A stretch of 64,000 bases of DNA from a virus. Shown here in pieces: positions 1,386 to 57,292 of the stretch. The notes under the pieces were generated by a model. It ran no database searches. It was given only the letters and a program-made list of their open reading frames with translations, and was not told where the DNA came from. Position 1 is the stretch's first letter, and each line of letters starts with the position of its first letter. A program made the position numbers and the translations under genes. The DNA lies in IMG/VR virus record IMGVR_UViG_3300021077_000115, positions 110,064 through 174,063 of that record. The stretch is one strand, 5' to 3'.

Positions 1386-2066
1386 TTAGGTGCAGGTTCC
1401 AGCGGTAAGTGCCGTGTGCCCAGTACATGTCCCCGCGTTGCAAGTTCCGTTACTAAAACAAGAACAACCAACCGTGCCAGAAGGACATGGCTTTGCGCTG
1501 CACATTGCCAAATTGCCAACCGGAACTTGTGTGTTGCAGATGTTCGTACCATTGCATATGTTATCAAGACAACATGGTTGATTTACGCCGCCACAAGCCA
1601 AGCAGACATTGAAGTTAGCCGAACCAATCACCGTGTTGCAAATGGTTGTTTTGATATCTTGGCATTCCCCAAGACAACATGGCTGCCCAAGCGTTGCATA
1701 AGCAATAGAACAGTCAGTTGTTATCGAGGTAGAGTTGCTACCACCACCTATATTTGCAGATCCGCCATTGGGGACTGCTCCGCCGGTACTGACACTGCCG
1801 CCAGTTGCCGAGATACCCACAGTGCCGCCAGTGCTGCCAGTAGGCTGATCCCCTCCAGTAGCTGAGCTAGCAACAGAGGTTCCTTTCGAACCTCCTGTAA
1901 CATTAGAGGCGGTCGTTGTTGTGTCGCTTCCGCCTGCACTCACGCTTGTTCCTACTCCTGAACTGCCACCAGTTTCTGTTACATCAGAACTGGTTACCGT
2001 TGTGCTGCTGCAAGCAGCAATGATTGCTAAAATAATCAATGAAAATAATCTTTGTATCGTTGTCAT
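1386..2066 (-). CDS. Cys-rich secreted lipoprotein with S/T/G-rich linker
   Basis: Lipobox IAAC in MTTIQRLFSLIILAIIAAC. Long Ser/Thr/Gly-rich region, then a repeated QPCC...C...C cysteine module. Confidence 0.6.
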   Translation of the reverse strand: MTTIQRLFSLIILAIIAACSSTTVTSSDVTETGGSSGVGTSVSAGGSDTTTTASNVTGGSKGTSVASSATGGDQPTGSTGGTVGISATGGSVSTGGAVPNGGSANIGGGSNSTSITTDCSIAYATLGQPCCLGECQDIKTTICNTVIGSANFNVCLACGGVNQPCCLDNICNGTNICNTQVPVGNLAMCSAKPCPSGTVGCSCFSNGTCNAGTCTGHTALTAGTCT

Positions 2067-3670: not shown

Positions 3671-3759
3671 GATATATATCTTCTTTGGTAAAAGAAAGAA
3701 GGTCGGAGAGTCAACACCACTAAAACTCTCCGACCTTCCAAGTCCATATCAATCGCAGC

Positions 3760-7052: not shown

Positions 7053-7179
7053 TATAGCCTCTGTATAAAATTACAGTGTAGGTGGACCCGTTACAACTCG
7101 AACGTAACTCTCATTCGGTAGCTAACCGAAAGCGCTCTTCCCTGAGCCGAGGCCCGAAACATTCATGTAGGTAAGTGTG

Positions 7180-7527
7180 GGTGGAAGTGTTCGGAATCGA
7201 ACCGAAGTCTTGCGATCCTCTCTTATTTCCATCATTCACGTGCGTAGCCACTGTATCCCCAATGGCTGAGTTCGTCAATTCGGTGGACGACCTATTCACC
7301 TGTTTGTCTCGTAAGCAACTTCGGTAACCCAAGTTACTTACCAGCCTTTGTGGTTGGCAATCCTGACCGCTACCAAGACAATCTTGCGGAGGACCGGCCG
7401 TGCTACTTATTAGGCAGCTGCGGCGTATGCATTATCATTCGCATTTAGAACGCCTAATGTTTGGGTGTATTAGGACCACCTACACGCAGGAAATATTTCA
7501 GATCCCAATCGAAAACCTTTCACTCCC
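7180..7527 (-). ncRNA. ssrA: tmRNA (ssrA)
   Basis: Minus-strand 5' end GGGAGTGAAAGGTTTTCGATTGGGATCTG resembles E. coli GGGGCUGAUUCUGGAUUCGACGGGAU. Tag frame at revcomp 7442..7407 reads GCG AAT GAT AAT GCA TAC GCC GCA GCT GCC TAA TAA = ANDNAYAAAA** (cf. ANDENYALAA). 3' end has T-arm TTCGG-TTCGATT-CCGAA, then CACTTCC-A-CC, which pairs with the 5' GGGAGTG. Confidence 0.8.
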
Positions 7528-7699: not shown

Positions 7700-7772
7700 A
7701 GCTACTGAAAGGAATTGAACCTTCAACATCTTGATTACAGGTCAAGTGCTCTGCCAATTGAGCTACAGTAGC
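7700..7772 (-). tRNA. tRNA-Thr (anticodon UGU)
   Basis: Cloverleaf read by eye: acceptor GCTACTG/CAGTAGC, D-arm GCTC-AATTGGCA-GAGC, anticodon arm CTTGA-CCTGTAA-TCAAG (C33 unusual), 5-nt variable loop, T-arm GAAGG-TTCAATT-CCTTT, discriminator T, CCA not encoded. Confidence 0.75.
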
Positions 7773-8065: not shown

Positions 8066-8213
8066 CGAATTTATTCAGTTGTCAATGAGCGGAGGCCCAT
8101 GTTCAAGCCCCAGCAATTCCAAGACAGTATCAGGCTTTCGCCGGGCCGTCAAGAACGGCACCACAACCTCCGCTCAAAAACAACACCTTTCTTTGGTAAA
8201 AAGAAGTAGGGAA

Positions 8214-12176: not shown

Positions 12177-12845
12177 TCAACAACCCACGAACCAATGTTT
12201 ATGCAAATGATCAGCGATATCAATGAGCAATTTGCTGCGACAATCATAAACGATTTTTTTAATCTTACACTTATCACAAGAATCGCAGGGCACGATTCCG
12301 ATGGGTGTGTTACAACAAAACATACAGTCCATTGGAATTTCAAAAGACATTAGCATTTTTATAAGCTGAACATTATCAATGTTCTTCAAAGGAAAGGCAT
12401 ACCGAATAGGCCCTCTCCGCGCACCTTCTAAGTTGTCTGCAAATGAATTGAAACTATTTAGAAGCTTCAAAAAATCCTTCTCTTGATAAGGTTCTCCCTT
12501 TTTATATCCCCATGAAACAATATCTTCAGGCTGAAAATATATTTGGAATAAGCTTGGCCACAGATGATGTTGCCTAAGCATGAGATCCCCTACTGCATTG
12601 CCACTCACCGATATCTCTTGCGCCTGAATGAAATGCCCAATCGACTTCGCAAAACGCAAATACTTGTGCCTTGCAATGGATTGAGCCCGCATCTGTCCAG
12701 CATTGCAACGATGATGTTCCTTTACCGACAATGTTATTACAGGGTTTTCCTTGGTGGAAAGCATACCCGCCATGTAAAGTATCGCCGTTGAATCCAAACC
12801 GCCTGACCAGATCACCACGTTGCGAGCCATTAGCTCACCCCGCAA
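12177..12845 (-). CDS. queC: QueC-like PP-loop ATPase (7-cyano-7-deazaguanine synthase family)
   Basis: N-terminal NVVIWSGGLDSTAILYMA PP-loop (SGGxDS) and C-terminal Cys cluster CCNTPIGIVPCDSCDKC, ~220 aa as for QueC; the middle region is divergent. Confidence 0.5.
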   Translation of the reverse strand: MRGELMARNVVIWSGGLDSTAILYMAGMLSTKENPVITLSVKEHHRCNAGQMRAQSIARHKYLRFAKSIGHFIQAQEISVSGNAVGDLMLRQHHLWPSLFQIYFQPEDIVSWGYKKGEPYQEKDFLKLLNSFNSFADNLEGARRGPIRYAFPLKNIDNVQLIKMLMSFEIPMDCMFCCNTPIGIVPCDSCDKCKIKKIVYDCRSKLLIDIADHLHKHWFVGC

Positions 12846-15017: not shown

Positions 15018-15205
15018 GACTTGCTCCAATCCTTTGGTAAAAAGCCTCCGGACTTAAGCCAAACGTCCAAGGCTTCGAATTGCTCAGCCATTTCAATTGC
15101 TTGATCAGGCATCAGAGGGGAACCTAAAGTATGGTTCTCTTCTTCGTTTGACAGAATCCCTTTGGCCAATTCTCTCATCAGCCTCAATGCTTCTTCTGGG
15201 TCCAT
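15014..15205 (-). CDS. hypothetical protein
   Basis: 63-aa ORF. Confidence 0.4.
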   Translation of the reverse strand: MDPEEALRLMRELAKGILSNEEENHTLGSPLMPDQAIEMAEQFEALDVWLKSGGFLPKDWSKS

Positions 15206-16541: not shown

Positions 16542-16581
16542 CCTTAAATGCCAAAAGCTCTCGCCCATCTAAGAGCGAGAG
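16542..16581 (-). promoter_or_regulatory. terminator hairpin + CTTTTGGCATTTAAGGAG cassette (copy 2)
   Basis: Perfect hairpin CTCTCGC-loop-GCGAGAG adjacent to the motif; the motif doubles as the SD for gene 16090..16533. Confidence 0.45.
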
Positions 16582-19232: not shown

Positions 19233-19299
19233 GATTCCCCCTTTGGGTTGTGCTTAGGGATACGTGGATAAGCTGTCCATGAAAAGCTCTTGCAACTCA

Positions 19300-19716
19300 T
19301 CAACATCTGATCCCCAAATGTCGTTTTGTATCAGCTCTGACCAAGTCAGCGTACTGATCGATGTTCTTGTAGTGATGAGCATTAGTGATCTGAGTCACTG
19401 CGTCATCAAGATCACGCTTACTTGCGAACTGAGCGATCATACCTTCGAAGTGGCATCGCTCAGCATTCAGAATCGTTGTTCCTTCGATTGCGAGATGGTA
19501 ACAACCGAACAGCTCAGGATTGGTTGTATGGAACTTCCATTGGGCTTCGTGCCTCACAACCTCGAATGCCCATGGTGTGCCTTCTTGGCAATCCTTCACC
19601 AGCCCCTTGCGCTGCATTTGATTGCAGATATTTTTTGGAACCGATGAGGCGTATGCACTGAACATCACATCTAACATTAGAAGCGCCAGTAGCACCGGCA
19701 AAACAATCTTTCGCAT
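19300..19716 (-). CDS. secreted protein
   Basis: Signal peptide MRKIVLPVLLALLMLDVMFSAYA; conserved C-rich leader element lies upstream. Confidence 0.5.
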   Translation of the reverse strand: MRKIVLPVLLALLMLDVMFSAYASSVPKNICNQMQRKGLVKDCQEGTPWAFEVVRHEAQWKFHTTNPELFGCYHLAIEGTTILNAERCHFEGMIAQFASKRDLDDAVTQITNAHHYKNIDQYADLVRADTKRHLGIRC

Positions 19717-19754
19717 ACATCCCTCCTGGATAGGGGTTTAAGCGTTGGGGTTCT

Positions 19755-19967
19755 CTAGTGAGGTACCCGGGAATTTTCTGGGGGACTTGAAGGTGTTTCC
19801 TTTTCGTCTTTGAGAAGCCTCTCTCGGAACTTGGCCATGGCCACAAGAGCACATGCATGTGCCATGTTCTCTGAAAGTGCTGGATTCTCTGCCATGATTG
19901 CGTCAACTACGGATTGAATTGAGTAGCTGGCAGCTAAGGGCTGCCCTGCAAGCTTTGCTTGATACAT
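19755..19967 (-). CDS. hypothetical protein
   Basis: 70-aa ORF. Confidence 0.35.
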   Translation of the reverse strand: MYQAKLAGQPLAASYSIQSVVDAIMAENPALSENMAHACALVAMAKFRERLLKDEKETPSSPPENSRVPH

Positions 19968-19985
19968 GTTACGCTCCCGTCACAT

Positions 19986-20426
19986 TCATGTGACGATATG
20001 TAGCGCTCGAAGAATTCTTGCGAGCAGCGTGTTGTGAGTAAGAACAACAGAAGATTGACTAGTGACGTGCTTGCAATAAATACGTTTCATTGCCTGCTCT
20101 TCCAACTGTTGCTCAATCGTGCTTTCTTCCACCCAACCCATCTCGCCCTTCGTGCCCAGTAAGCCTAGGCTCAACAACATGGAGCGACAGATCAGTAGGT
20201 CCGCCCAGATGCCCATGCGCCTGTCTAGGGTCACACGTTGACGGCTCAACGAGAATCGAATCTGCCTTGAGATGCGCGCTAGCTCTTGCTCAAGTCGAAA
20301 AATCTCGTCGCACAATGCAACCCGGCTGCGGTGCGTAGCGTCAAACCATGAAAGAGTCTTTTCAGGTTTTGGACATGGAATTGTTGGACAGCGAGATTCG
20401 TCTCGCACGTTGATGGATGATTGCAT
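19986..20426 (-). CDS. hypothetical protein
   Basis: GGGAGGAAATC-ATG RBS; conserved C-rich leader element lies upstream. Confidence 0.5.
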   Translation of the reverse strand: MQSSINVRDESRCPTIPCPKPEKTLSWFDATHRSRVALCDEIFRLEQELARISRQIRFSLSRQRVTLDRRMGIWADLLICRSMLLSLGLLGTKGEMGWVEESTIEQQLEEQAMKRIYCKHVTSQSSVVLTHNTLLARILRALHIVT

Positions 20427-20600
20427 GATTTCCTCCCTGTGTTTTTACCTACATCTACCCTCATAGTGGATATGGGGTTTAAGGTTTGGGGTGCCCGCTG
20501 TAGGTACCTGGGATCTACGGGGCAAAAAACGAAACTTTTCCTTTCGTTCACCCACACTCAGCCCTAGCACCGGAGTTTCTATCTCCGGCCCAGCACTCTC

Positions 20601-20637
20601 TCTTAAATGCCAAAAGCCCATCCAATCAAGGAGTGGG
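20601..20637 (-). promoter_or_regulatory. terminator hairpin + CTTTTGGCATTTAAGAG cassette (copy 5)
   Basis: Same architecture. Confidence 0.4.
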
Positions 20638-20884
20638 CGAGTTAGGTTTGACTAAAACAATCTGGTGAGTGCGTCCAATCAAGAGCAGTGGCCCATGCCT
20701 CAACTACCTTTGGTAAAAACCAACTGTTCAGTATTGACAGCCGCACGTGATTGTGTTTGTTCGACAAACGTTAGTGGATGAAGAGCCGGATATCTGTTCA
20801 GTATCACAACACGCTAAGTGTTTGATATCTGGTAGATTGAAGTTCGCATAACACACGTTATGTAAACTCCGGCCACTCAGTCTT

Positions 20885-20925
20885 CTTAAATGCCAAAAGC
20901 CCACACTCCGAAAAGTGCAGGCTCA
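20885..20925 (-). promoter_or_regulatory. terminator hairpin + CTTTTGGCATTTAAGAAG cassette (copy 6)
   Basis: Same architecture. Confidence 0.4.
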
Positions 20926-20953
20926 GGCATCACTCAACTCAGGACGAAAAATT

Positions 20954-22114
20954 TCAGGCGCTCTCAACTGCTTTATTTTGCTCGTTGCAATACCAAATGA
21001 TGTCAGCCTCTGTCACACCCGCGTCAACAAGCTGGCGTTCGTACTCGGCATGAACCTCGCCTAGGTTCCGATAAGTTGCACAGTAAGCCCACTTGTAATC
21101 GCGCTCAGCCGTTGTTTCGTTCTCGCCATTCTTGATGGCAATCTGCTTGGCAGCTTTACCAGCCGCATGCGCTTGCCCGCGCTTGACTTCGCGCTCGGTC
21201 TTCTGGCCAACCGTCTTGGCTGTGCCGTTGGTTCCAACGAAACGGCGCGCTGCCTTACGCTCACGCCATGCTACCAATCGTTCGGCATCATCAGGAAAGG
21301 CCGGCAAACCTGATAGAGTCTTGTAGTGAGCCTTGCGTGACTCTCCAAGCCCAGCACGGAATGGAGGAGTTGTAGGATCAGGTAGGTGGATTGCTCGAAT
21401 CCACGGCATCTCGGTTGCGCCATTCGTACCCAAGGCCCATGGATCAACCGCGCAAGCTGGAATGCCAACTGCTGCGCCGGCTTCGCCGCTCATCATAACG
21501 GCTGCAATGTCCTTCCGAAGGTCACGGCCAGCTGGGCCGTGCAAGTTCTTGTCAACCGTGTAGGCACTCATGTGCGTGGTTGCGACTGCGAAGGCTGCGA
21601 GATACACAGCCCGGTATGCATCAGGGTCACTGACCGGCGTGAGCCAAGACTTGTCCAGCTTCGGGAGATAGACAGTCAGCCCATGGATCGGAGCTTCGTG
21701 CTCACCCGGTTCTTCGACCGCATCATCAGGCTCATCGGCCGCATCATCCAGCTCGTTGAGCGGAAGGGGCAACTGCTCCGGTTCATCGTCCGGATGTGAT
21801 TCAAGTACGGTGTTGAATGCTGTCCAGATTGGCTCGTAGCCGAGCATTCGAACCTGCTCCTGTAGGCTGTTGTGAGCAGCAAACTGTGTTCCCGCTACTG
21901 CTGAAACATTTCGGCCGAGCAGTTCGGTCGAGCAGATAAACCGGCGCGGGATGACAACTCCGCTTGCATCGGTTGCGCGTTGCACAGTCAAAGCTAAGTG
22001 TGCCGATGTGAGTTCCTTGGTAACTTCGGCCTCTGTGTCGGCGATTAGAGCTAAAGTCTCTGGGGAAAGAGCTATGTTTTGGTTGACGTTCTGGTGAGCG
22101 AACGGTCTTGCCAT
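20954..22114 (-). CDS. hypothetical protein (386 aa, higher GC than surroundings)
   Basis: Long ORF, acidic central linker, composition noticeably more GC-rich than neighbours. Confidence 0.55.
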   Translation of the reverse strand: MARPFAHQNVNQNIALSPETLALIADTEAEVTKELTSAHLALTVQRATDASGVVIPRRFICSTELLGRNVSAVAGTQFAAHNSLQEQVRMLGYEPIWTAFNTVLESHPDDEPEQLPLPLNELDDAADEPDDAVEEPGEHEAPIHGLTVYLPKLDKSWLTPVSDPDAYRAVYLAAFAVATTHMSAYTVDKNLHGPAGRDLRKDIAAVMMSGEAGAAVGIPACAVDPWALGTNGATEMPWIRAIHLPDPTTPPFRAGLGESRKAHYKTLSGLPAFPDDAERLVAWRERKAARRFVGTNGTAKTVGQKTEREVKRGQAHAAGKAAKQIAIKNGENETTAERDYKWAYCATYRNLGEVHAEYERQLVDAGVTEADIIWYCNEQNKAVESA

Positions 22115-22660: not shown

Positions 22661-23150
22661 GGTGTTTTCTCCTAACGAAACGTGATGTTATTGAGCGAAA
22701 CGATTCAGGTAATTAGTAAAAACGAATCAAACGAACCGTCGTCTCACCAATTCAAATCCCTCGGAATCTCCGGTCGAAGAATCGGATATAGTGTCTCCGG
22801 CTGGCTAGGCGGATTGTAGGGGGTATGGGCTGGTTGGGTCAGGCGGCCGGCCGGGCCACCTCAAAAGGTACATCTGGCAGATTCAGCTCTGGCAGATTCA
22901 GATATGCACGCCCTGGCAGGCTTTTTAGTTACGCGCCGCCAATGTTCAAGCATACCACACCTGATTCATGTAGATTCTCATCCCCTAGTCTATCTTCTAT
23001 CTTCTTGTTCTGGTTTATGATAGAGTTCATTTCTATCCCTTCTATTCTTTATTCGGCCTCTTGGCTGATTTTTTCTAGGCTGAATTGGGATAGTTTGATT
23101 ATGACGATGGTGTGATTTATCTCACCTATTTTTACCAAAGAGTAAATATT
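22661..23150. promoter_or_regulatory. divergent-transcription switch region (candidate divergent promoters/origin)
   Basis: About 490 bp without credible ORFs between the minus and plus blocks. Direct repeat CTGGCAGATTCAG x2 (22873-22905), AT-rich pyrimidine tract 22960-23060, ends with TTTTTACCAAAGAGTAAATATTTT motif. Confidence 0.4.
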
Positions 23151-23486
23151 TTATGTTGAAAAGGAACTCGGTGAGTTGAGTACTCGATTGGTTAGTGGAG
23201 CTAAATGGTTCAAAGTGGAAGGAAGTGGTGTGAAATTCCAGGAAGAACTAACTCTTTTTTCTTAAAAGAGCTGGGTAATTTGATTTGTACAATATCTCCC
23301 AATAGATAATTTATCACCTATAACTACGTTATGAGGGAGATCTTAGAAATTAGATCTGATATAGAAAAATCCAATGATTTCGCGTAGTTGAATGTGGGTA
23401 TTGACTGAAAGCGGTGTAGAGGGGTAAGATGGGCAGATTTTTGATTGGAGAAATAGTTTAGATGAAATATTACAAGCGATTGAAGA

Positions 23487-26170: not shown

Positions 26171-26208
26171 TACATTATCTGAGTTATTTTTACCAAAGAG
26201 TATATTTT

Positions 26209-49855: not shown

Positions 49856-50190
49856 TGGAACCTAATGAGTCAAAGATTGAGGTTTTCGCAAGGTGGTACG
49901 GGTATCCGTCTGTCTACTGTCAAGCGAGCACACCAGATTACCGATATGTCGTAGCTATCCCTAGACTCCCCTACAACATACTGGAAGAATTCAAGAAGGA
50001 ACTGGACTCTCACTCCTCCGATGGTGATCCATACTTCGTGTTTGAATACTCAGATCAGTTCCTCAGTATAGCCGGTACCTTTGATATTCCGCGTAACCAC
50101 TGTGAGAGTTGGGTGCAATGCTACTTGACTGCCCGCCCTGAGGGTGGGCTCAGATTCAAAAACGAGCCATGGTCAGAAAGGAACCCATGA
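49855..50190 (+). CDS. hypothetical protein between tnpA and tnpB
   Basis: 111-aa ORF. Confidence 0.4.
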   Translation: MEPNESKIEVFARWYGYPSVYCQASTPDYRYVVAIPRLPYNILEEFKKELDSHSSDGDPYFVFEYSDQFLSIAGTFDIPRNHCESWVQCYLTARPEGGLRFKNEPWSERNP

Positions 50191-50603
50191 CAAGTTACTC
50201 CAACTTCTTTGAGATGCTGGACGCTATTGAAGCGAAGATGCAAGACCCACGTTGTAAGGAGGCTGGACTCACCCCTTACACAGGGGAGCCTCTACTAACG
50301 AGTATGGATCTTGGGTGGATCGTTGCGCTTCCCCTAAGCGAACGGGACGAAACATTCCAGTTCAGTGTGAGTCTACGTCAGATAAAGATTGACCGGCAAG
50401 ATCCTAGATGGGCCGATGCTTATGCCAGGCTCCAATCATTTACGACCCACTTCATTACATGTCCAAAGCATGGGGTGGTTAAAGGCATCCCGATACACAA
50501 GCTTCAAGGCAAGAAAGAGGGATCTGAGACGCTGGTATGCATACCTTGTGTGGCTGAGCGCATGGTGAATCCTGTTCGAACTTCAGCCAATCTCTCGATA
50601 TGA
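50169..50603 (+). CDS. hypothetical protein between tnpA and tnpB (C..H...C..C)
   Basis: 144-aa ORF. Confidence 0.4.
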   Translation: MVRKEPMTSYSNFFEMLDAIEAKMQDPRCKEAGLTPYTGEPLLTSMDLGWIVALPLSERDETFQFSVSLRQIKIDRQDPRWADAYARLQSFTTHFITCPKHGVVKGIPIHKLQGKKEGSETLVCIPCVAERMVNPVRTSANLSI

Positions 50604-52027
50604 AGAAATGTCGGTTCTTCATGCTGCATCCTGAGTGCAACCCTGGGAAGATTCAATCCCTGGAAGCTCTTCACGTCGAGTACATAGCTTATGTCCGGAT
50701 CTGCGTTCAGACGATGCTCAAAGCCCATAGGCTGACTTTGCCCCGCTCGGAGAAGCAGGACTTCTTCCCCAGGGCTGAGAAGCTTACGTCTCAGATTGAG
50801 AAAAACGCCCGCGACCATGCCATCCAGATTGTGAGCACTTGGGCTAAGTCGGTTTATGCCAGGAAGATCAAGACTTTCATCAGGTTATCTTTCAAAGAGG
50901 GGAACTTTGACGAGGACTTCTGTAAGCAGCTTTACACGGTGGGTAAGTACTTGATTCATGAGCCGAAGGAAACCGTGTCCCAGGAAGCAATTGATCTGTA
51001 TTGGTCTTGGCTCTCTGACCCAGAAGTAGTGGGGAACCCGCCTTCCATATCCAGTCGGATTCCAATGAGGATGTCGGAGAACACCTGCTCATTGGAAGAC
51101 CCAGAAGAGGCTACCCACGCGGATCTTTGGCTCAAGATCTCAACTTTGATTTCTCGGAAGCTTGCTTGGCTACCACTGGTTGGGAACCCATACGTCAAGA
51201 AGTCATCTGACGTAAGTAAGGGAATCCACGCTAGAAAAGACCGAAAGGGCCGTTGGCGGTTCGAAGCCGTTGATACCAAAGAGTGGTTGGTCTGCGAGGC
51301 CGAACCTGACTTACCCAGGATTGGAGTCGATGTAGGACTAAACGTGGTAGCGGCTACTTCGAGCGGACACGTGTTTGGGGCCTACCTAAAACCCAAGTTC
51401 AACAGGCTCTACGACAAGGTCAGGGAAGTCAGGGCGAACCGCCAAAGGCAGGATCTCAAGGAGAACAGTCCTAGGCTAGACCGACTAGAATCACGCCTCT
51501 CTGGCTTGACCAAGAGCTTCACGGGACGGGTATCCAATGAACTGATCCGAACGTACTCTGAGTCCGTCTTCGTCTTAGAAGACCTAGATCTTCGTGGTTG
51601 TCGTGGGCAAAAACGCTTCTGTTACAGGGAATTAGCTCATGCCCTTGAATCAAAGGCTCCAACTGAAAAGGTGAATCCGGCCTACAGTTCTCAGACATGC
51701 CCTTCGTGTGGGCATGTCTCTAGATACAATCGGGCTGGAATAGATTTCATCTGTCGCCAGTGCGGCAGGATTTCACATGCCGACGTGGTAGGAGGGATCA
51801 ATTTGCTCGGACGTTCCGAGAGCAAACAGATTGGCCTCGATGATCATCCGTCGGAAGTGAAGGGAGTGCTTGTGAGGCTATACTGGTCTAGGAGGAATCC
51901 GGATCAGGACTGTCCACAAGACTTCTTGAATAAATACGCGCCATTACCGTATGGCCGAAGGCTTACTACCAGGGGACTCTCTCGAAAGAGAAGCACTGGC
52001 ATAGCTTTTAATCAGGTAGCTGCTTGA
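50600..52027 (+). CDS. tnpB: TnpB (OrfB_IS605/RuvC-like RNA-guided nuclease family)
   Basis: RuvC-I IGVDVGLN, RuvC-II VFVLEDLDL, zinc finger CPSCGH...CRQCG, RuvC-III HADVVGGINLL. Confidence 0.8.
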   Translation: MKKCRFFMLHPECNPGKIQSLEALHVEYIAYVRICVQTMLKAHRLTLPRSEKQDFFPRAEKLTSQIEKNARDHAIQIVSTWAKSVYARKIKTFIRLSFKEGNFDEDFCKQLYTVGKYLIHEPKETVSQEAIDLYWSWLSDPEVVGNPPSISSRIPMRMSENTCSLEDPEEATHADLWLKISTLISRKLAWLPLVGNPYVKKSSDVSKGIHARKDRKGRWRFEAVDTKEWLVCEAEPDLPRIGVDVGLNVVAATSSGHVFGAYLKPKFNRLYDKVREVRANRQRQDLKENSPRLDRLESRLSGLTKSFTGRVSNELIRTYSESVFVLEDLDLRGCRGQKRFCYRELAHALESKAPTEKVNPAYSSQTCPSCGHVSRYNRAGIDFICRQCGRISHADVVGGINLLGRSESKQIGLDDHPSEVKGVLVRLYWSRRNPDQDCPQDFLNKYAPLPYGRRLTTRGLSRKRSTGIAFNQVAA

Positions 52028-53763: not shown

Positions 53764-54027
53764 ATGCGAACATATACATTGTCACGAATTTATATTGATA
53801 CAGAACACCAGAGAGATTGCTGTGGGGATATAAATTATACAAATAGTGAGCCATTTCTTATTATAAAGTGCAATGATGTCCCAATTAGATTTGCATCTGT
53901 TAAGAGCATTGAATCTAGTAGAGATATTTTTGAGAAACTAGACACTAACATCTTTACAGTTGAAGATATATTAGATGTTTTGTGTAAAAGTAAATTAACT
54001 ATCTCACACGATATGGAAACATTATGA
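53764..54027 (+). CDS. hypothetical protein
   Basis: 87-aa ORF. Confidence 0.4.
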   Translation: MRTYTLSRIYIDTEHQRDCCGDINYTNSEPFLIIKCNDVPIRFASVKSIESSRDIFEKLDTNIFTVEDILDVLCKSKLTISHDMETL

Positions 54028-55286
54028 CTAGAACATTTGAATTAGGCGGCGAAGTAAACACTAGCAAAATAAGTTCTACTGTTAGTGTTCGTGACCAAAT
54101 CATACAAAAAGTTGGTGGGGATATTGAACAGGTTTGCGAGCTTGGTCATCCTCTAATCGGCGGAAAACCAGGATATCGTGATGAATCGTATATATCAAAT
54201 CTAGTTGGTCTAGCCCACCTTTCATTCTCTAGTCACCGCCATATGATATTGGATCCAGATGCAGTCTGGATTACAATCGAACATGGGCTGGCAACTCACA
54301 TCAAAGAGAATGCCGAAGCTCTTCGTGACAAGTTCGTTTCATTCAAGGGCAAACGAACAATCGATATCAGGCGAGACGAATTTAGGCGCGGCTCAATCAA
54401 TAATTGGGAGGGATGCTTTGATGAGTTCTCGGAGAAGATTGGGGAATTTATCGGCCCAAAGAAAGATTTGATTGTCGGAAATTTCTCGACCACAGGACAG
54501 CTACAAAGAGTATCCTCCGAAATTGTTCTGATGGATGCTATGAGTAAATACTTCGATTACTCAGTCAAAACATGTTGTCACATTCCTGTGATAACCCTCA
54601 CTGGTACTGTGGAAGATTGGGAACGCATCCGTGATAAGGTGAATTCATTTGATGAATTTGGTTTGTCTTGGTGGGCAGATCACCTGAAGCCAGTCCTTGA
54701 TCAATTAGTTCTAGCCGCTAAGGGAGAGGTTGATATTGACTTCTGGAAGAGCTGGTATAAAGAGGGCGGCGGTAGTGGTGGCCCATTTATCTCAGGACAT
54801 GTCAACGCATTCTTTCCATATTTAGGAAGAGATAATAGTAAAAACAAGTATATGGGTACTTGTCCGTCTCATCACGGGAATACTCTATCCTCTTTCAACC
54901 AATCTATTTCTAAGGTTCCATTCATTTGGGATTACTATAACCAGGAATATCCTATGGAGTTTGTTGGTGGATTGATTGGGCTAACACAAGATGACTCTGG
55001 CCGTGTTCAATGTTCCTTTGGCTGGGCTGTTCGAGATGAGTCAGTTCCACTCTCTAATTACCCAATCGAGAAGCTTGTGAAGGATATGGTCATCCACAAC
55101 AAAGATGGAGAGGCCGGATTATTGAAGAGAGCTGAGGCAGAGCATTGGGATAATGCTCCAGATGACAAGCAGCTTTACGAAGTTCAAATCGAATGGAAAG
55201 ACGGTTTGAAGACTTATAAGCAATGGGATTTTAATAATTTGTTCGTCAAAGAACCTGCTAATGGAGAGCAGATGGTGGTAGAGTAA
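54024..55286 (+). CDS. hypothetical 420-aa protein (no family assignable by eye)
   Basis: Long ORF; GGGSGGPFISGHVNAFFPY glycine-rich motif; stops and starts overlap across 54024-57292. Confidence 0.55.
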   Translation: MTRTFELGGEVNTSKISSTVSVRDQIIQKVGGDIEQVCELGHPLIGGKPGYRDESYISNLVGLAHLSFSSHRHMILDPDAVWITIEHGLATHIKENAEALRDKFVSFKGKRTIDIRRDEFRRGSINNWEGCFDEFSEKIGEFIGPKKDLIVGNFSTTGQLQRVSSEIVLMDAMSKYFDYSVKTCCHIPVITLTGTVEDWERIRDKVNSFDEFGLSWWADHLKPVLDQLVLAAKGEVDIDFWKSWYKEGGGSGGPFISGHVNAFFPYLGRDNSKNKYMGTCPSHHGNTLSSFNQSISKVPFIWDYYNQEYPMEFVGGLIGLTQDDSGRVQCSFGWAVRDESVPLSNYPIEKLVKDMVIHNKDGEAGLLKRAEAEHWDNAPDDKQLYEVQIEWKDGLKTYKQWDFNNLFVKEPANGEQMVVE

Positions 55287-55287
55287 T

Positions 55288-56166
55288 ATGCCAACAAGAA
55301 TCATTGCATTAGGTACAGGCTCTGCCTTCACAATGAACAACTACCAAACTAACTTTGTCATCAAAAGAAATGGCAAGTATCTTTTGGTAGATTGTGGTGG
55401 CGATGTCAGATTTAGCCTTAGAGATCAGGGCCTGTCTGCCAAGGATATAGATGCTGTCTATATTTCACATGCTCACGCAGATCATGTGGGCGGCATGGAG
55501 TTCTTGGCATTCACACGCTACTTTACAAAGAGATCAATGGAAAATGCTAGGGCCCTCGCGCGAACTGTCGATCCTGAGCATTCCCCAGAGCCACTTCAAT
55601 TACCAGTGCTATTCTGTGAGCATGGGATGATTCGAACACTTTGGGATCACTCATTACGAGGAGGTCTCGAAGGACTTGAGGGAATCGACGCCAACATCGA
55701 CACCTATTTCAGGGTACATCCAGTGCCAAAAAACGGATCGTTCGAGTGGGAGGGCTTGAAGTTCGATATCGTTCAAAGCCTTCATGTCTCTGCTAAATAT
55801 AGTATTGTTGATTCATTCGGGCTGATGTTTACTGATGATATTGGGTATCGAATATTCATCACTACAGATGTTCAGTTCGCCCCAGAGACATCTATGAAAG
55901 CCTATTACAAAGAGGCTGATGTCATAATTCATGACTGCGAAACAGGATTCAAAAGCGGAGTTCACGCCCATTACGATCAGCTAAGGACATTGGATAATAG
56001 CATTAAGAATAAGATGCTTTTGGTTCACTACCAAGACAATGTCTTGGAAGATTGGAATGCGTGGGTGGACAAGGCCAACCAGGACGGCTTCGACGGATTC
56101 GTCAAGCCTGGGCCGATTTGGTCTGATGAACCACCTGACGTAATCGCAGCAACAACGAATGTTTGA
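55288..56166 (+). CDS. metallo-beta-lactamase-fold hydrolase (RNase Z / cyclic-nucleotide phosphodiesterase-like)
   Basis: ISHAHADHVGG (HxHxDH), downstream ITTDVQ and IIHDCE, then HAHYD metal-ligand-like residues. Confidence 0.6.
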   Translation: MPTRIIALGTGSAFTMNNYQTNFVIKRNGKYLLVDCGGDVRFSLRDQGLSAKDIDAVYISHAHADHVGGMEFLAFTRYFTKRSMENARALARTVDPEHSPEPLQLPVLFCEHGMIRTLWDHSLRGGLEGLEGIDANIDTYFRVHPVPKNGSFEWEGLKFDIVQSLHVSAKYSIVDSFGLMFTDDIGYRIFITTDVQFAPETSMKAYYKEADVIIHDCETGFKSGVHAHYDQLRTLDNSIKNKMLLVHYQDNVLEDWNAWVDKANQDGFDGFVKPGPIWSDEPPDVIAATTNV

Positions 56167-56242: not shown

Positions 56243-57292
56243 ATGAAGAAAATGAAGATTGGTGTTTTCATTGCTCGGCTACAACCGTTTCATCTTGCCC
56301 ACGTTGATATTGTAAAGTTGGCAATGAAAGATAACGATCATGTGGTTATAATTCTTGGCTCTGCATGTCAGGCTAAGACAATCAAGAATCCATGGACTAC
56401 TGACGAGCGCGAATTGATGATTCGCAAATGTCTTACGTCAGAAGGAAATACCCACATAAGTGTTGTTGCTGCTAAAGACTATTTCTATAATGACAACATG
56501 TGGCTATCTTCATTGCAGTCTGCATTGGGGTCTGTAAAGGTCAATGGCGTTGAAGTTGACCTTGATGATTGTGACGTAACGCTTTATGGTCATGATAAGG
56601 ATAGGTCAACATTCTATCTCCACTTATTTCCTAAGTGGAAGCTCAATGATGTTGGAAACTTACGCACAGAGTTTCCTAGGCTAGATGCAACGTTGGTCAG
56701 ATCATTTTTCTTCAAAGGTAATACGGCTGAGTTAAGAAAGTTTATACCACAACCTGTATATGATATGTTGCTATCAGAAATGGGAACTAGTACATACCAA
56801 AATCTTGTTGCAGAATTCGACCACATTACTGAGTATAGAGCGCTATGGGCCTCATCTCCGTATCCAGTTCAATTTGTGACAACCGATGCTCTTGTGATAA
56901 AGTCCGGACACGTACTAATGACGGTGCGTGGCGGATATCCAGGCAAAGGTCTAATCGCGCTACCTGGCGGATACTTGAATCCAGATGAGCGTATAGTTGA
57001 CGGATGCCTTCGTGAGTTAAAAGAAGAAACGCAAATCGCTGTTAGCAAAGATGAGTTGAGGAAGGCAATTGTTGATCAGAGGGTCTTCGATCATCCAGAA
57101 CGTTCTTTGCGCGGACGAACTATTACACATGGTTATTGCATAAATCTCGGTGCCGGAGACCTTCCAAAAGTAAAGCGCGGTGACGATGCCGCTGAAGCGT
57201 TTTGGATGCCACTTCGAGATGTTTATCGTAGAGAAGAAGATTTCTTCGAGGATCACTTCCACATCATATTCTTTTTTACTTCGAAATTTTAG
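56243..57292 (+). CDS. nadM: bifunctional NMN adenylyltransferase (NadM-type) / Nudix ADP-ribose pyrophosphatase
   Basis: N-terminal MKIGVFIARLQPFHLAHVDIV (archaeal-type NMNAT (H/T)xGH); C-terminal GGYLNPDERIVDGCLRELKEETQI Nudix box. Confidence 0.8.
   Translation: MKKMKIGVFIARLQPFHLAHVDIVKLAMKDNDHVVIILGSACQAKTIKNPWTTDERELMIRKCLTSEGNTHISVVAAKDYFYNDNMWLSSLQSALGSVKVNGVEVDLDDCDVTLYGHDKDRSTFYLHLFPKWKLNDVGNLRTEFPRLDATLVRSFFFKGNTAELRKFIPQPVYDMLLSEMGTSTYQNLVAEFDHITEYRALWASSPYPVQFVTTDALVIKSGHVLMTVRGGYPGKGLIALPGGYLNPDERIVDGCLRELKEETQIAVSKDELRKAIVDQRVFDHPERSLRGRTITHGYCINLGAGDLPKVKRGDDAAEAFWMPLRDVYRREEDFFEDHFHIIFFFTSKF

Follow-up and report, generated by a model that had tools for sequence, protein, structure and literature searches.

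A conserved terminator-linked element, present twice, as a candidate promoter or operator module of an uncultivated huge phage

A short element that occurs twice on the minus (gene) strand was characterized in a 64,000-nucleotide stretch of viral DNA (the window; IMG/VR record IMGVR_UViG_3300021077_000115, positions 110,064 to 174,063). The two repeats, termed here copy A and copy B, appear to be paralogous copies of one ancient intergenic regulatory module of an uncultivated huge-phage family, in which an A/U-rich hairpin, predicted to be an intrinsic terminator in the window, is followed within 2-11 nt by a core of ~55-70 bp. Judging from its conservation, the element is functional; in kind it is an ordinary regulatory DNA module, specific to the family, linked to a terminator and found in two copies. 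We tentatively favor, with somewhat less than even confidence, a reading of the core as a DNA-level promoter/operator module placed after a terminator. Copy B would be the purely noncoding and best conserved copy, and copy A a second copy into which a small open reading frame (ORF), p70, reads.

Both copies lie where the initial annotation had placed them, and they are homologous on the gene strand beyond chance. A pattern of 17 bases (GGGGTTTAAGNNTTGGGGT) matches exactly at 19733-19751 and 20474-20492 and, at ≤3 mismatches, only once more in the window (63164, with 3 mismatches), against an expected count of 0.06; none of 100 shuffles gave three matches. By blastn, the segment 19700-19830 aligned to 20467-20513 of the window (76.6% identity over 47 nt, E = 0.002), and a MAFFT alignment of the two copies displayed a mean column identity of 78% across 90 columns. 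No third copy was retrieved from the 64-kb window by an nhmmer profile of all copies or by the pattern scan. An apparent third TTATCCACG site at 19263-19271 was rejected, as it falls in the frameshifted 3′ end of the gene p138 and has no counterpart in relatives. In the gene direction, copy A reads GACGAAAAGGAAACACCTTCAAGTCCCCCAGAAAATTCCCGGGTACCTCACTAGAGAACCCCAACGCTTAAACCCCTATCCAGGAGGGATGTATG and copy B reads AACGAAAGGAAAAGTTTCGTTTTTTGCCCCGTAGATCCCAGGTACCTACAGCGGGCACCCCAAACCTTAAACCCCATATCCACTATGAGGGTAGATGTAGGTAA, with the following parts:

19727-19772, minus strand: copy A core, comprising TCCCGGGTACC (19772-19762), a 9-nt spacer, AACCCCA (19752-19746) and CTTAAACCCCTATCCA (19742-19727)
20445-20513, minus strand: copy B core, first boxes, comprising TCCCAGGTACC (20513-20503), a 9-nt spacer and CACCCCA (20493-20487)
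Same core, minus strand: later boxes of copy B, comprising CTTAAACCCCA (20483-20473), TATCCACTA (20472-20464) and then ..TAG-ATGTAGGTAA (to 20445)
19789-19808, minus strand: A-rich segment GACGAAAAGGAAACACCTTC, corresponding in copy A to hairpin 2 (below), inside the p70 coding sequence

The repeat had been delimited at ~55 nt; the homology holds, and the unit extends to ~85-100 nt when the upstream A-rich segment is counted (GACGAAAAGGAAACACCTTC in copy A, a hairpin in copy B). The aligned counterparts of GACGAAAAGGAAACACCTTC are CGAAAGGAAAAGTTTCG in copy B and GCGAAAGGAAAAGTTCGC in copy A of the relative L014. The copies are direct repeats ~740 bp apart that bracket the genes p146 and p70, and each copy has the orientation of the genes, on the coding strand and 5′ of a start codon.

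No relative of the window was found among GenBank phages, either by DNA or via the 386-aa protein encoded by the gene adjoining the element, and a metagenomic contig of 391,957 bp encodes proteins identical to those of the window; the source is thus an uncultivated huge phage without close references. IMG/VR contained no locus related to the 386-aa protein, and no copy of the element was found in IMG/VR (exact-pattern scans gave only chance matches or an unrelated repeat) or in GTDB genomes (two scans, nothing). Relatives were recovered via homologues of p138 and of the 386-aa protein, leading to syntenic contigs of eight lineages besides the window, across which the 386-aa protein is 47-82% identical. 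The relative contigs are L012/L013, L014, L031 (=L038), L033, L035-37, L040, L041/42, L043 and L044/45. Of these, L031 was matched independently by a pattern scan of JGI metagenomes, the single true relative found there. Contigs encoding an identical 146-aa protein (L007-L010) are 99.9-100% identical to the window and are uninformative for conservation.

Nine lineages, the window among them, carry copy B, always 0.3-2 kb downstream of the 386-aa gene. Copy A is found in the window, L012, L014, L031 and L041, with a degenerate form in L033, and no related locus carries more than two copies. The B core shows 62-83% identity among five lineages, with no decay with distance (window and L031: 83% in the B core, 54% between the 386-aa proteins); third codon positions of the 386-aa gene reach 35-60%, and the sequence downstream of the B core 11-48%. 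The B core is as strongly conserved as first and second codon positions, and these comparisons indicate that it is under purifying selection at the nucleotide level. A local duplication had been put forward for the case that only two copies exist and relatives lack conservation; there are only two copies, but relatives conserve the element strongly at orthologous positions. This conservation is above the neutral level given by third-codon-position identity, and the pair is thus no neutral local duplication. A-type copies always read AAT-TCCCG, and B-type copies TCCCA, or TCCCT in two lineages. Since these diagnostic bases are kept apart, the A/B duplication is older than these lineages, and the copies are not being homogenized.

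The core consensus common to copies A and B is TCCCnGGTAyC-N9-nACCCCA-N2-3-CTTAA; over all 14 copies it reads TCCC.GGTAcC T.....g.g.ACCCCA. The two boxes are separated by exactly 9 nt in 14/14 copies, with a spacer sequence that varies. From its 5′ end, the B module consists of hairpin 1 (GGCCGGAGAT(A/G)G..CCGG), a G-rich linker, hairpin 2, 2-11 nt and the core, whose boxes are TCCC(A/T)GGTA(C/T)C (block 1), N9, (C/A)AC(C/A)CC(A/T), N2-3, C(T/C)TAA(A/T), (A)CCCC(C) and TATCCACTA, followed at the end by TGTAGG-N4-TGTAGGYAA. The TGTAGG motif forms a direct repeat with 10-bp spacing in most lineages, and L035 has one direct and two inverted copies. At the center of block 1 is a GGTACC palindrome, which L035 extends to 12 bp. 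Block 1 and the start codon are 56-194 nt apart, depending on the lineage. Copy A of L014 carries an internal duplication of GGTCAGAAyCCCA.

Two hairpins precede the core of copy B:

20519-20553, minus strand: hairpin 2, with an A-rich 5′ arm, a U-rich 3′ arm and a U-run, directly upstream of the B core
20570-20590, minus strand: hairpin 1, GGCCGGAGATAGAAACTCCGG, with its 5′ arm and loop start conserved in sequence, part of the conserved module

An intrinsic terminator before the second copy had been proposed from the sequence, and a hairpin does lie directly upstream of copy B. This AACGAAAGGAAAAGTTTCGTTTTTTG hairpin at 20526-20551 (minus strand) is part of the longer fold at 20519-20553, and it was missed by a consensus terminator scan because it has just 2 G-C pairs. 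In the window, hairpin 2 looks like a weak intrinsic terminator within a longer hairpin. Folding of each lineage with RNAfold gave a strong hairpin 2 in every case with quite different stem sequences (e.g., GGGGCGAAAA/TTTTCGCCCC in L040 and TTTGCGATTTT/AAAATCGCAAA in L043); hairpin 2 covaries between lineages, and its conserved feature is thus its structure. A U-run follows in 5/8 lineages (window, L014, L031, L035 and L033). Hairpin 1 is conserved mostly as sequence, with 85% of the alignment cells paired and one compensatory pair, and its motif recurs at 20874 and at about 22775-22800.

Three small genes adjoin the copies:

19755-19967, minus strand: p70, a 70-aa ORF that ends within copy A, which supplies its last 12 codons and its stop codon
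19986-20426, minus strand: p146, the gene downstream of copy B in the window, with its start codon 37 nt after TATCCACTA
19300-19716, minus strand: p138, a signal-peptide protein gene downstream of copy A

The initial annotation described the copies as leaders of two genes and did not note the ORF at 19755-19967, the 3′ end of which is overlapped by copy A; the leader description needs amending there. The p70 stop codon (TAG) falls inside copy A, and repeat positions 19755-19790 are the 3′ end of the ORF. p70 is called as a gene in metagenome records and has homologues in L012, L014, L031, L033, L035 and L043; a p70 homologue search returned p70 alone. A single-sequence structure model of p70 predicts two confident helices (residues 17-56) and a low-confidence tail (57-70), with no recognizable DNA-binding fold. 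At the p70 C-terminus, block 1 of copy A encodes NSRVP in the window, L012 and L031; in L014 and L033 the block has diverged and, shifted by one frame, is translated as QLPGTY. It seems that p70 extends into the element, whose sequence does not owe its form to the protein.

Copy B is noncoding, as judged from its sequence in the several lineages. It might conversely represent the decaying or functional remnant of a small gene paralogous to the p70 C-terminus (..RKEKF.FLPR.SQVP..GTP..), given that in the p70 frame copy B is open and encodes similar peptides in the window, L014 and L031, in all of which GGTACC and ATGTAGG are separated by 48 nt. L035, however, has a stop immediately before SQVP and a 10-nt deletion after TATCCACTA that breaks the frame, copy B of L033 has no start codon, and the frames upstream of the block differ between the window and L014. 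In addition, TATCCACTA is kept as nucleotides in two different frames, gene callers report no ORF at copy B, and its conservation exceeds what a pseudogene would show. A gene remnant is accordingly a highly improbable explanation.

The genes downstream of the copies change from lineage to lineage. Copy B is followed by p146 in the window and L014, by a gene for a 74-aa membrane protein in L031, by p70 in L035, by a long leader broken by an endonuclease-like gene in L033, and by other genes in L040, L041 and L043. Copy A is followed by p138 (window, L012 and L014) or p64 (L031), and p138 is absent between copy A and p64 in L031 and L033. In the window, p138 is C-terminally truncated or frameshifted relative to homologues of 160-178 aa, and its displaced 3′ part forms a short ORF at 19254-19382. 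The insertion in L033 (5835-6563, minus strand) is a DUF723 (endonuclease-like) gene located between the B leader and p70; in L014, a 94-aa ORF (1436-1720, plus strand) splits p70 just upstream of copy A.

In the favored promoter/operator reading, the core consists of short invariant boxes at fixed spacing (TCCCnGGTAyC, 9 bp, nACCCCA, 2-3 bp, CTTAA(A/T), (A)CCCC, TATCCACTA and tandem/inverted TGTAGG) that would be bound by an RNA polymerase with a non-sigma-70-type specificity factor and/or by a phage transcription factor. Binding would restart or control transcription of whichever gene cassette follows the hairpin. A spacer of fixed length and variable sequence, together with invariant boxes, a palindrome, phased TGTAGG repeats and independence of frame and fold, fits a protein-bound DNA signal, from which we infer protein binding and promoter or operator activity at the DNA level. 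Likewise, the position after a conserved hairpin and before a changeable cassette fits a promoter/operator that restarts or controls transcription, as expected of a portable cassette combining terminator and promoter. Of the candidates named in the initial annotation, an operator or promoter would best suit the pattern of boxes and fixed spacer.

Several observations weigh against this reading. A consensus scan identified no sigma-70-like -35/-10 at either copy (by eye, the best matches are 3-4/6, with inconsistent spacing), and no known sigma consensus is matched by any pair of boxes. The 64 kb contain two copies only, whereas promoters specific to a phage tend to occur in large numbers. The window contains no RNA polymerase or sigma gene. 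Copies L012-A, L014-A and L031-A lack the TATCCAC half, so that a complete signal is not possible there, and in L040, L041 and L043 hairpin 2 has no U-run, so that a logic of termination followed by restart is not universal. Finally, the constant orientation of the element, on the coding strand and in the gene direction, would be explained equally well by a role at the RNA level.

Known promoter types were compared by eye, and sigma-32, sigma-54, extracytoplasmic function (ECF) sigma, Syn5/T7 promoters and the lambda boxA were rejected for wrong spacing or lack of conservation. The sigma-32 (Escherichia coli RpoH) promoter consensus is CTTGAA-N13-15-CCCCATnT. The element resembles this type in being bipartite, with a fixed spacer and a C-run box, and copy B of the window has CTTAAA and CCCCATAT; these two motifs are, however, adjacent rather than 13-15 bp apart, a further point against a promoter. 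With regard to alternative sigma factors generally, the upstream box TCCCnGGTAyC matches no known -35. Promoters of the T7 class share the sequence ..CACTATAGGGAGA, and the T7-like resemblance here (CACTAT) is partial and not conserved. For the single-subunit RNA polymerase of Syn5, the promoter is ATTGGGCACCCGTAA (PMC3950665). Similarity to the Syn5/T7 group includes GCGGGCACCCC in the window, L041 and L044, and CCACTATGAGGG or CCACTATGTAGG in several B copies. Syn5 and T7 promoters are single contiguous signals of 15-23 bp with many per genome, whereas the resemblances here are partial, 25 bp apart and missing from some lineages (L035 has TGACCACACCA), and the window has no gene for such a polymerase.

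A role at the RNA level would make the element a C-rich, mostly unstructured leader, either bound by an RNA-binding protein or small RNA of phage or host origin or acting as an anti-Shine-Dalgarno sequence. In the latter version, the C-runs would mask G-rich ribosome-binding sites (GGGAGG, GGAGGG and AAGGGG), controlling translation or its coupling to the upstream ORF. In line with this, every copy is oriented as the genes are and precedes a start codon on the gene strand, and the ACCCC box pairs with a downstream GGGG in L012-A, L014-A and L041-A. The GGGG of L012 and L014 is the Shine-Dalgarno (SD) sequence of p138, with the p70 stop codon in the loop, a classical layout for translational coupling; the sequences suggest such coupling in L012 and L014 only, a weak lead toward an RNA-level role. 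In L035, moreover, the core sequence AAUACCCCUUA is able to pair with a conserved downstream UAAGGGGUGUU.

These pairing partners change from lineage to lineage, and the RNA fold of the core is not conserved. An RNAalifold consensus of five lineages contains pairs in the two upstream hairpins and in one weak CUAC/GUAG stem and leaves the core without consensus pairs. Minimum free energy z-scores of the leaders range from -2.2 to +0.6, with folds that differ by lineage, and leader-SD duplexes are no better than composition-matched shuffles in 10/11 copies. No Rfam match was obtained for the whole window (gathering score) or for 19600-21000 (E ≤ 5). The 56-194 nt between block 1 and the start codon count against an RNA-level role as well, and anti-SD pairing leaves a variable spacer of exactly 9 nt unexplained. 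The RNAalifold analysis also suggested that the GCUGGG linker pairs with CCCAGG in block 1; this was rejected because L033 and L043 carry an uncompensated A-to-U change and L040 lacks the linker. On balance, an RNA-level cis element is unlikely, though it is the main rival of the promoter/operator reading.

The riboswitch or attenuator suggested in the initial annotation is not supported. The element resembles such leaders in lying upstream of genes on the coding strand with a terminator hairpin nearby, but here the terminator precedes the element, and the distance to the start codon and the downstream gene both vary. No conserved fold, Rfam match or covariation was found, nine lineages being too few for formal covariation statistics. 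The G-quadruplex potential remarked on earlier is real for the window genome, which has four G-runs with long loops (9, 19 and 8 nt), but relatives do not keep them. A G-quadruplex is accordingly not supported: not all C-runs are conserved, L035 having CACACCA, and L033, L035 and L043 lacking GCCCC.

The closest described system is the promoter-early stem-loop (PeSL), a composite terminator/promoter cassette of T4-type phages that flanks variable ORFans and mediates their shuffling (Arbiol et al. 2010, PMC2839356; Comeau et al. 2014, PMC4122927). PeSLs and the element share a length of ~100 bp, a stem-loop terminator combined with a conserved sequence, and an end at the SD sequence and start codon of the next gene, and both occur between small ORFans in the plastic early region of a large phage. 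Both are direct repeats flanking genes that are present or absent among relatives, with insertions beside both copies in the present case, and in all lineages a strong stem-loop lies directly upstream of the core (its terminator role being putative here). PeSLs differ in possessing a near-consensus sigma-70 promoter, whereas the element has no sigma-70 -35/-10, and in occurring in dozens of copies, compared with two per region for the element in the 64-kb window and the related loci. The box pattern of the element is also different and much more strictly conserved, and one copy overlaps the end of an ORF.

This likeness raises the question of whether the repeats serve chiefly as recombination junctions, or cassette boundaries, within a hyperplastic early region, with no regulatory role of their own, kept since homologous exchange between them shuffles small genes. 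Copies A and B form direct repeats around p146 and p70, gene content downstream differs by lineage, and insertions lie beside the repeats (the homing-endonuclease-like gene after copy B in L033 and the extra ORF before copy A in L014); L014-A also carries its internal duplication. PeSL-mediated shuffling and mini-circles provide a precedent (PMC2839356). Recombination, however, needs mere homology, which leaves the invariant boxes and the variable spacer of fixed length unexplained. The A-type and B-type diagnostic bases stay distinct in all lineages, i.e., exchange has not homogenized the copies, and conservation equals that of first and second codon positions. Recombination as the main role is therefore quite improbable. 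Under the promoter/operator reading, the copies would probably serve also as homologous-recombination junctions for cassette gain and loss, as direct repeats ~740 bp apart that bracket variable small genes.

The element lies near the strand-switch of the window, where genes run leftward up to ~22.7 kb and rightward from ~23.5 kb, and it could belong to an origin of replication or to some other unique site in the DNA. The box TATCCACTA resembles the DnaA box TTATCCACA (L035 has TTATCCACT, which matches 8/9), TGTAGG repeats are spaced 10 bp apart beside an A/T-rich hairpin, and the cumulative GC skew has its minimum at 20-22 kb. The core sequence TATCCACT(A), however, has T as its ninth base in all lineages where the consensus has A, and TTATNCACA 9-mers (≤1 mismatch) are scattered, with 24 found against 16.6 expected and none at copy B. 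With the wrong ninth base and no clustering, a DnaA box was rejected. The skew switches where the genes change orientation (~22.7-23.5 kb), ~2 kb away, and a second copy inside an ORF (copy A) is not expected of an origin. We consider an origin or other unique site to be very improbable.

A more unusual interpretation, to which we assign little probability, is that the boxes are the promoter of an uncharacterized phage-encoded sigma factor or RNA polymerase acting at a few key early operons, or that the ~200-nt block is a new RNA. Such an RNA would be an undescribed noncoding RNA or leader belonging to a huge-phage family and made up of hairpin 1 (conserved loop AGAUAG), hairpin 2 and a C-rich unstructured tail, in which the C-runs (UCCC, CACCCCA and ACCCC) could target G-rich ribosome-binding sites, either in cis or in trans.

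In uncultivated huge phages, the organization of early transcription is almost wholly unexplored. The module offers a concrete target in this respect: a conserved noncoding signal with precise boxes, two paralogous copies and a nine-lineage comparison. It could reveal a new promoter or operator specificity, rather than a new principle, and would indicate that the plastic early regions of these phages are organized by terminator-linked repeats, as in T4-type phages.

Other repeats are present in the same region. An eight-copy repeat on the minus strand ("D1"; 22163, 20898, 20615, 18989, 17417, 16556, 16055 and 4044; e.g., 20588-20624) consists of a GC-rich hairpin with a varying stem followed by a conserved tail, TTTyGGCATTTAAGAG, and every copy comes shortly after a stop codon. 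At 16556, the SD-like tail constitutes the SD sequence 7 nt before an ATG. This repeat is conserved in L014, L031 (three copies), L033 and L035. It looks like a PeSL-type terminator cassette and, by analogy, would be a closer PeSL counterpart than the A/B element. Between two neighboring repeats of this hairpin-tail type, 67 nt (20691-20757) are missing from the near-identical contig L009, and L010 ends exactly at 20690; the segment is an indel polymorphism.

Upstream of the gene for a 151-aa protein, within the divergent intergenic region 22661-23486, a noncoding block (22700-22870, minus strand) is conserved in L033, L035, L040 and L043. Within it are two CCGGAGA(T/C) hairpin motifs resembling hairpin 1 of the B module, a ATACCCCCTACAAT stretch (sigma-70-like CTGACC-18-TACAAT) and GGTTCGTTTGATTCGTTTTTACTAATTACCTGAATCGTTTCG; the block is probably an early control region at the strand-switch. 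A further motif, TTTTTACCAAAGAGTA, has 7 matches in the window at ≤3 mismatches against 0.68 expected. Five of its sites lie on the gene strand in both arms (23129-23144 and 26187-26202 on the plus strand; 3679-3694, 8187-8202 and 15028-15043 on the minus strand), and those at 3679-3694, 23129-23144 and 26187-26202 are ~10 nt before a start codon. Relatives carry similar TTACCAAAG sequences, and the motif may be a translation-initiation or promoter signal. The 7-mer TATCCAC occurs 15 times in the window against 6.9 expected (0/100 shuffles reach 15), scattered over both strands and mostly inside genes.

Sequence searches of Pfam, PHROGs and PDB with p386, p146, p70, p138, p64, p151 and their neighbors gave no match. 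Elsewhere in the window, two RNA genes were identified:

7179-7527, minus strand: phage-encoded transfer-messenger RNA (tmRNA) with the tag ANDNAYAAAA (Rfam, 96 bits)
7700-7772, minus strand: tRNA-Thr(TGT)

The tmRNA tag suggests a proteobacterial host. Also present are a PhoH-like gene and auxiliary genes. Five side-gene loci were recorded (55288-56166, plus strand; 56243-57292, plus strand; 12177-12845, minus strand; 50169-52027, plus strand; and 54024-55286, plus strand), and the products named for them are an Apyc1-like anti-Pycsar protein of the metallo-beta-lactamase fold, a cytidylyltransferase-like and NUDIX protein, a QueC-like protein, an IS607/TnpB-like transposase pair and a DUF4419 protein. 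The transposase pair displays 46.6% identity to a sequence in the 485-kb uncultured phage LR745208.

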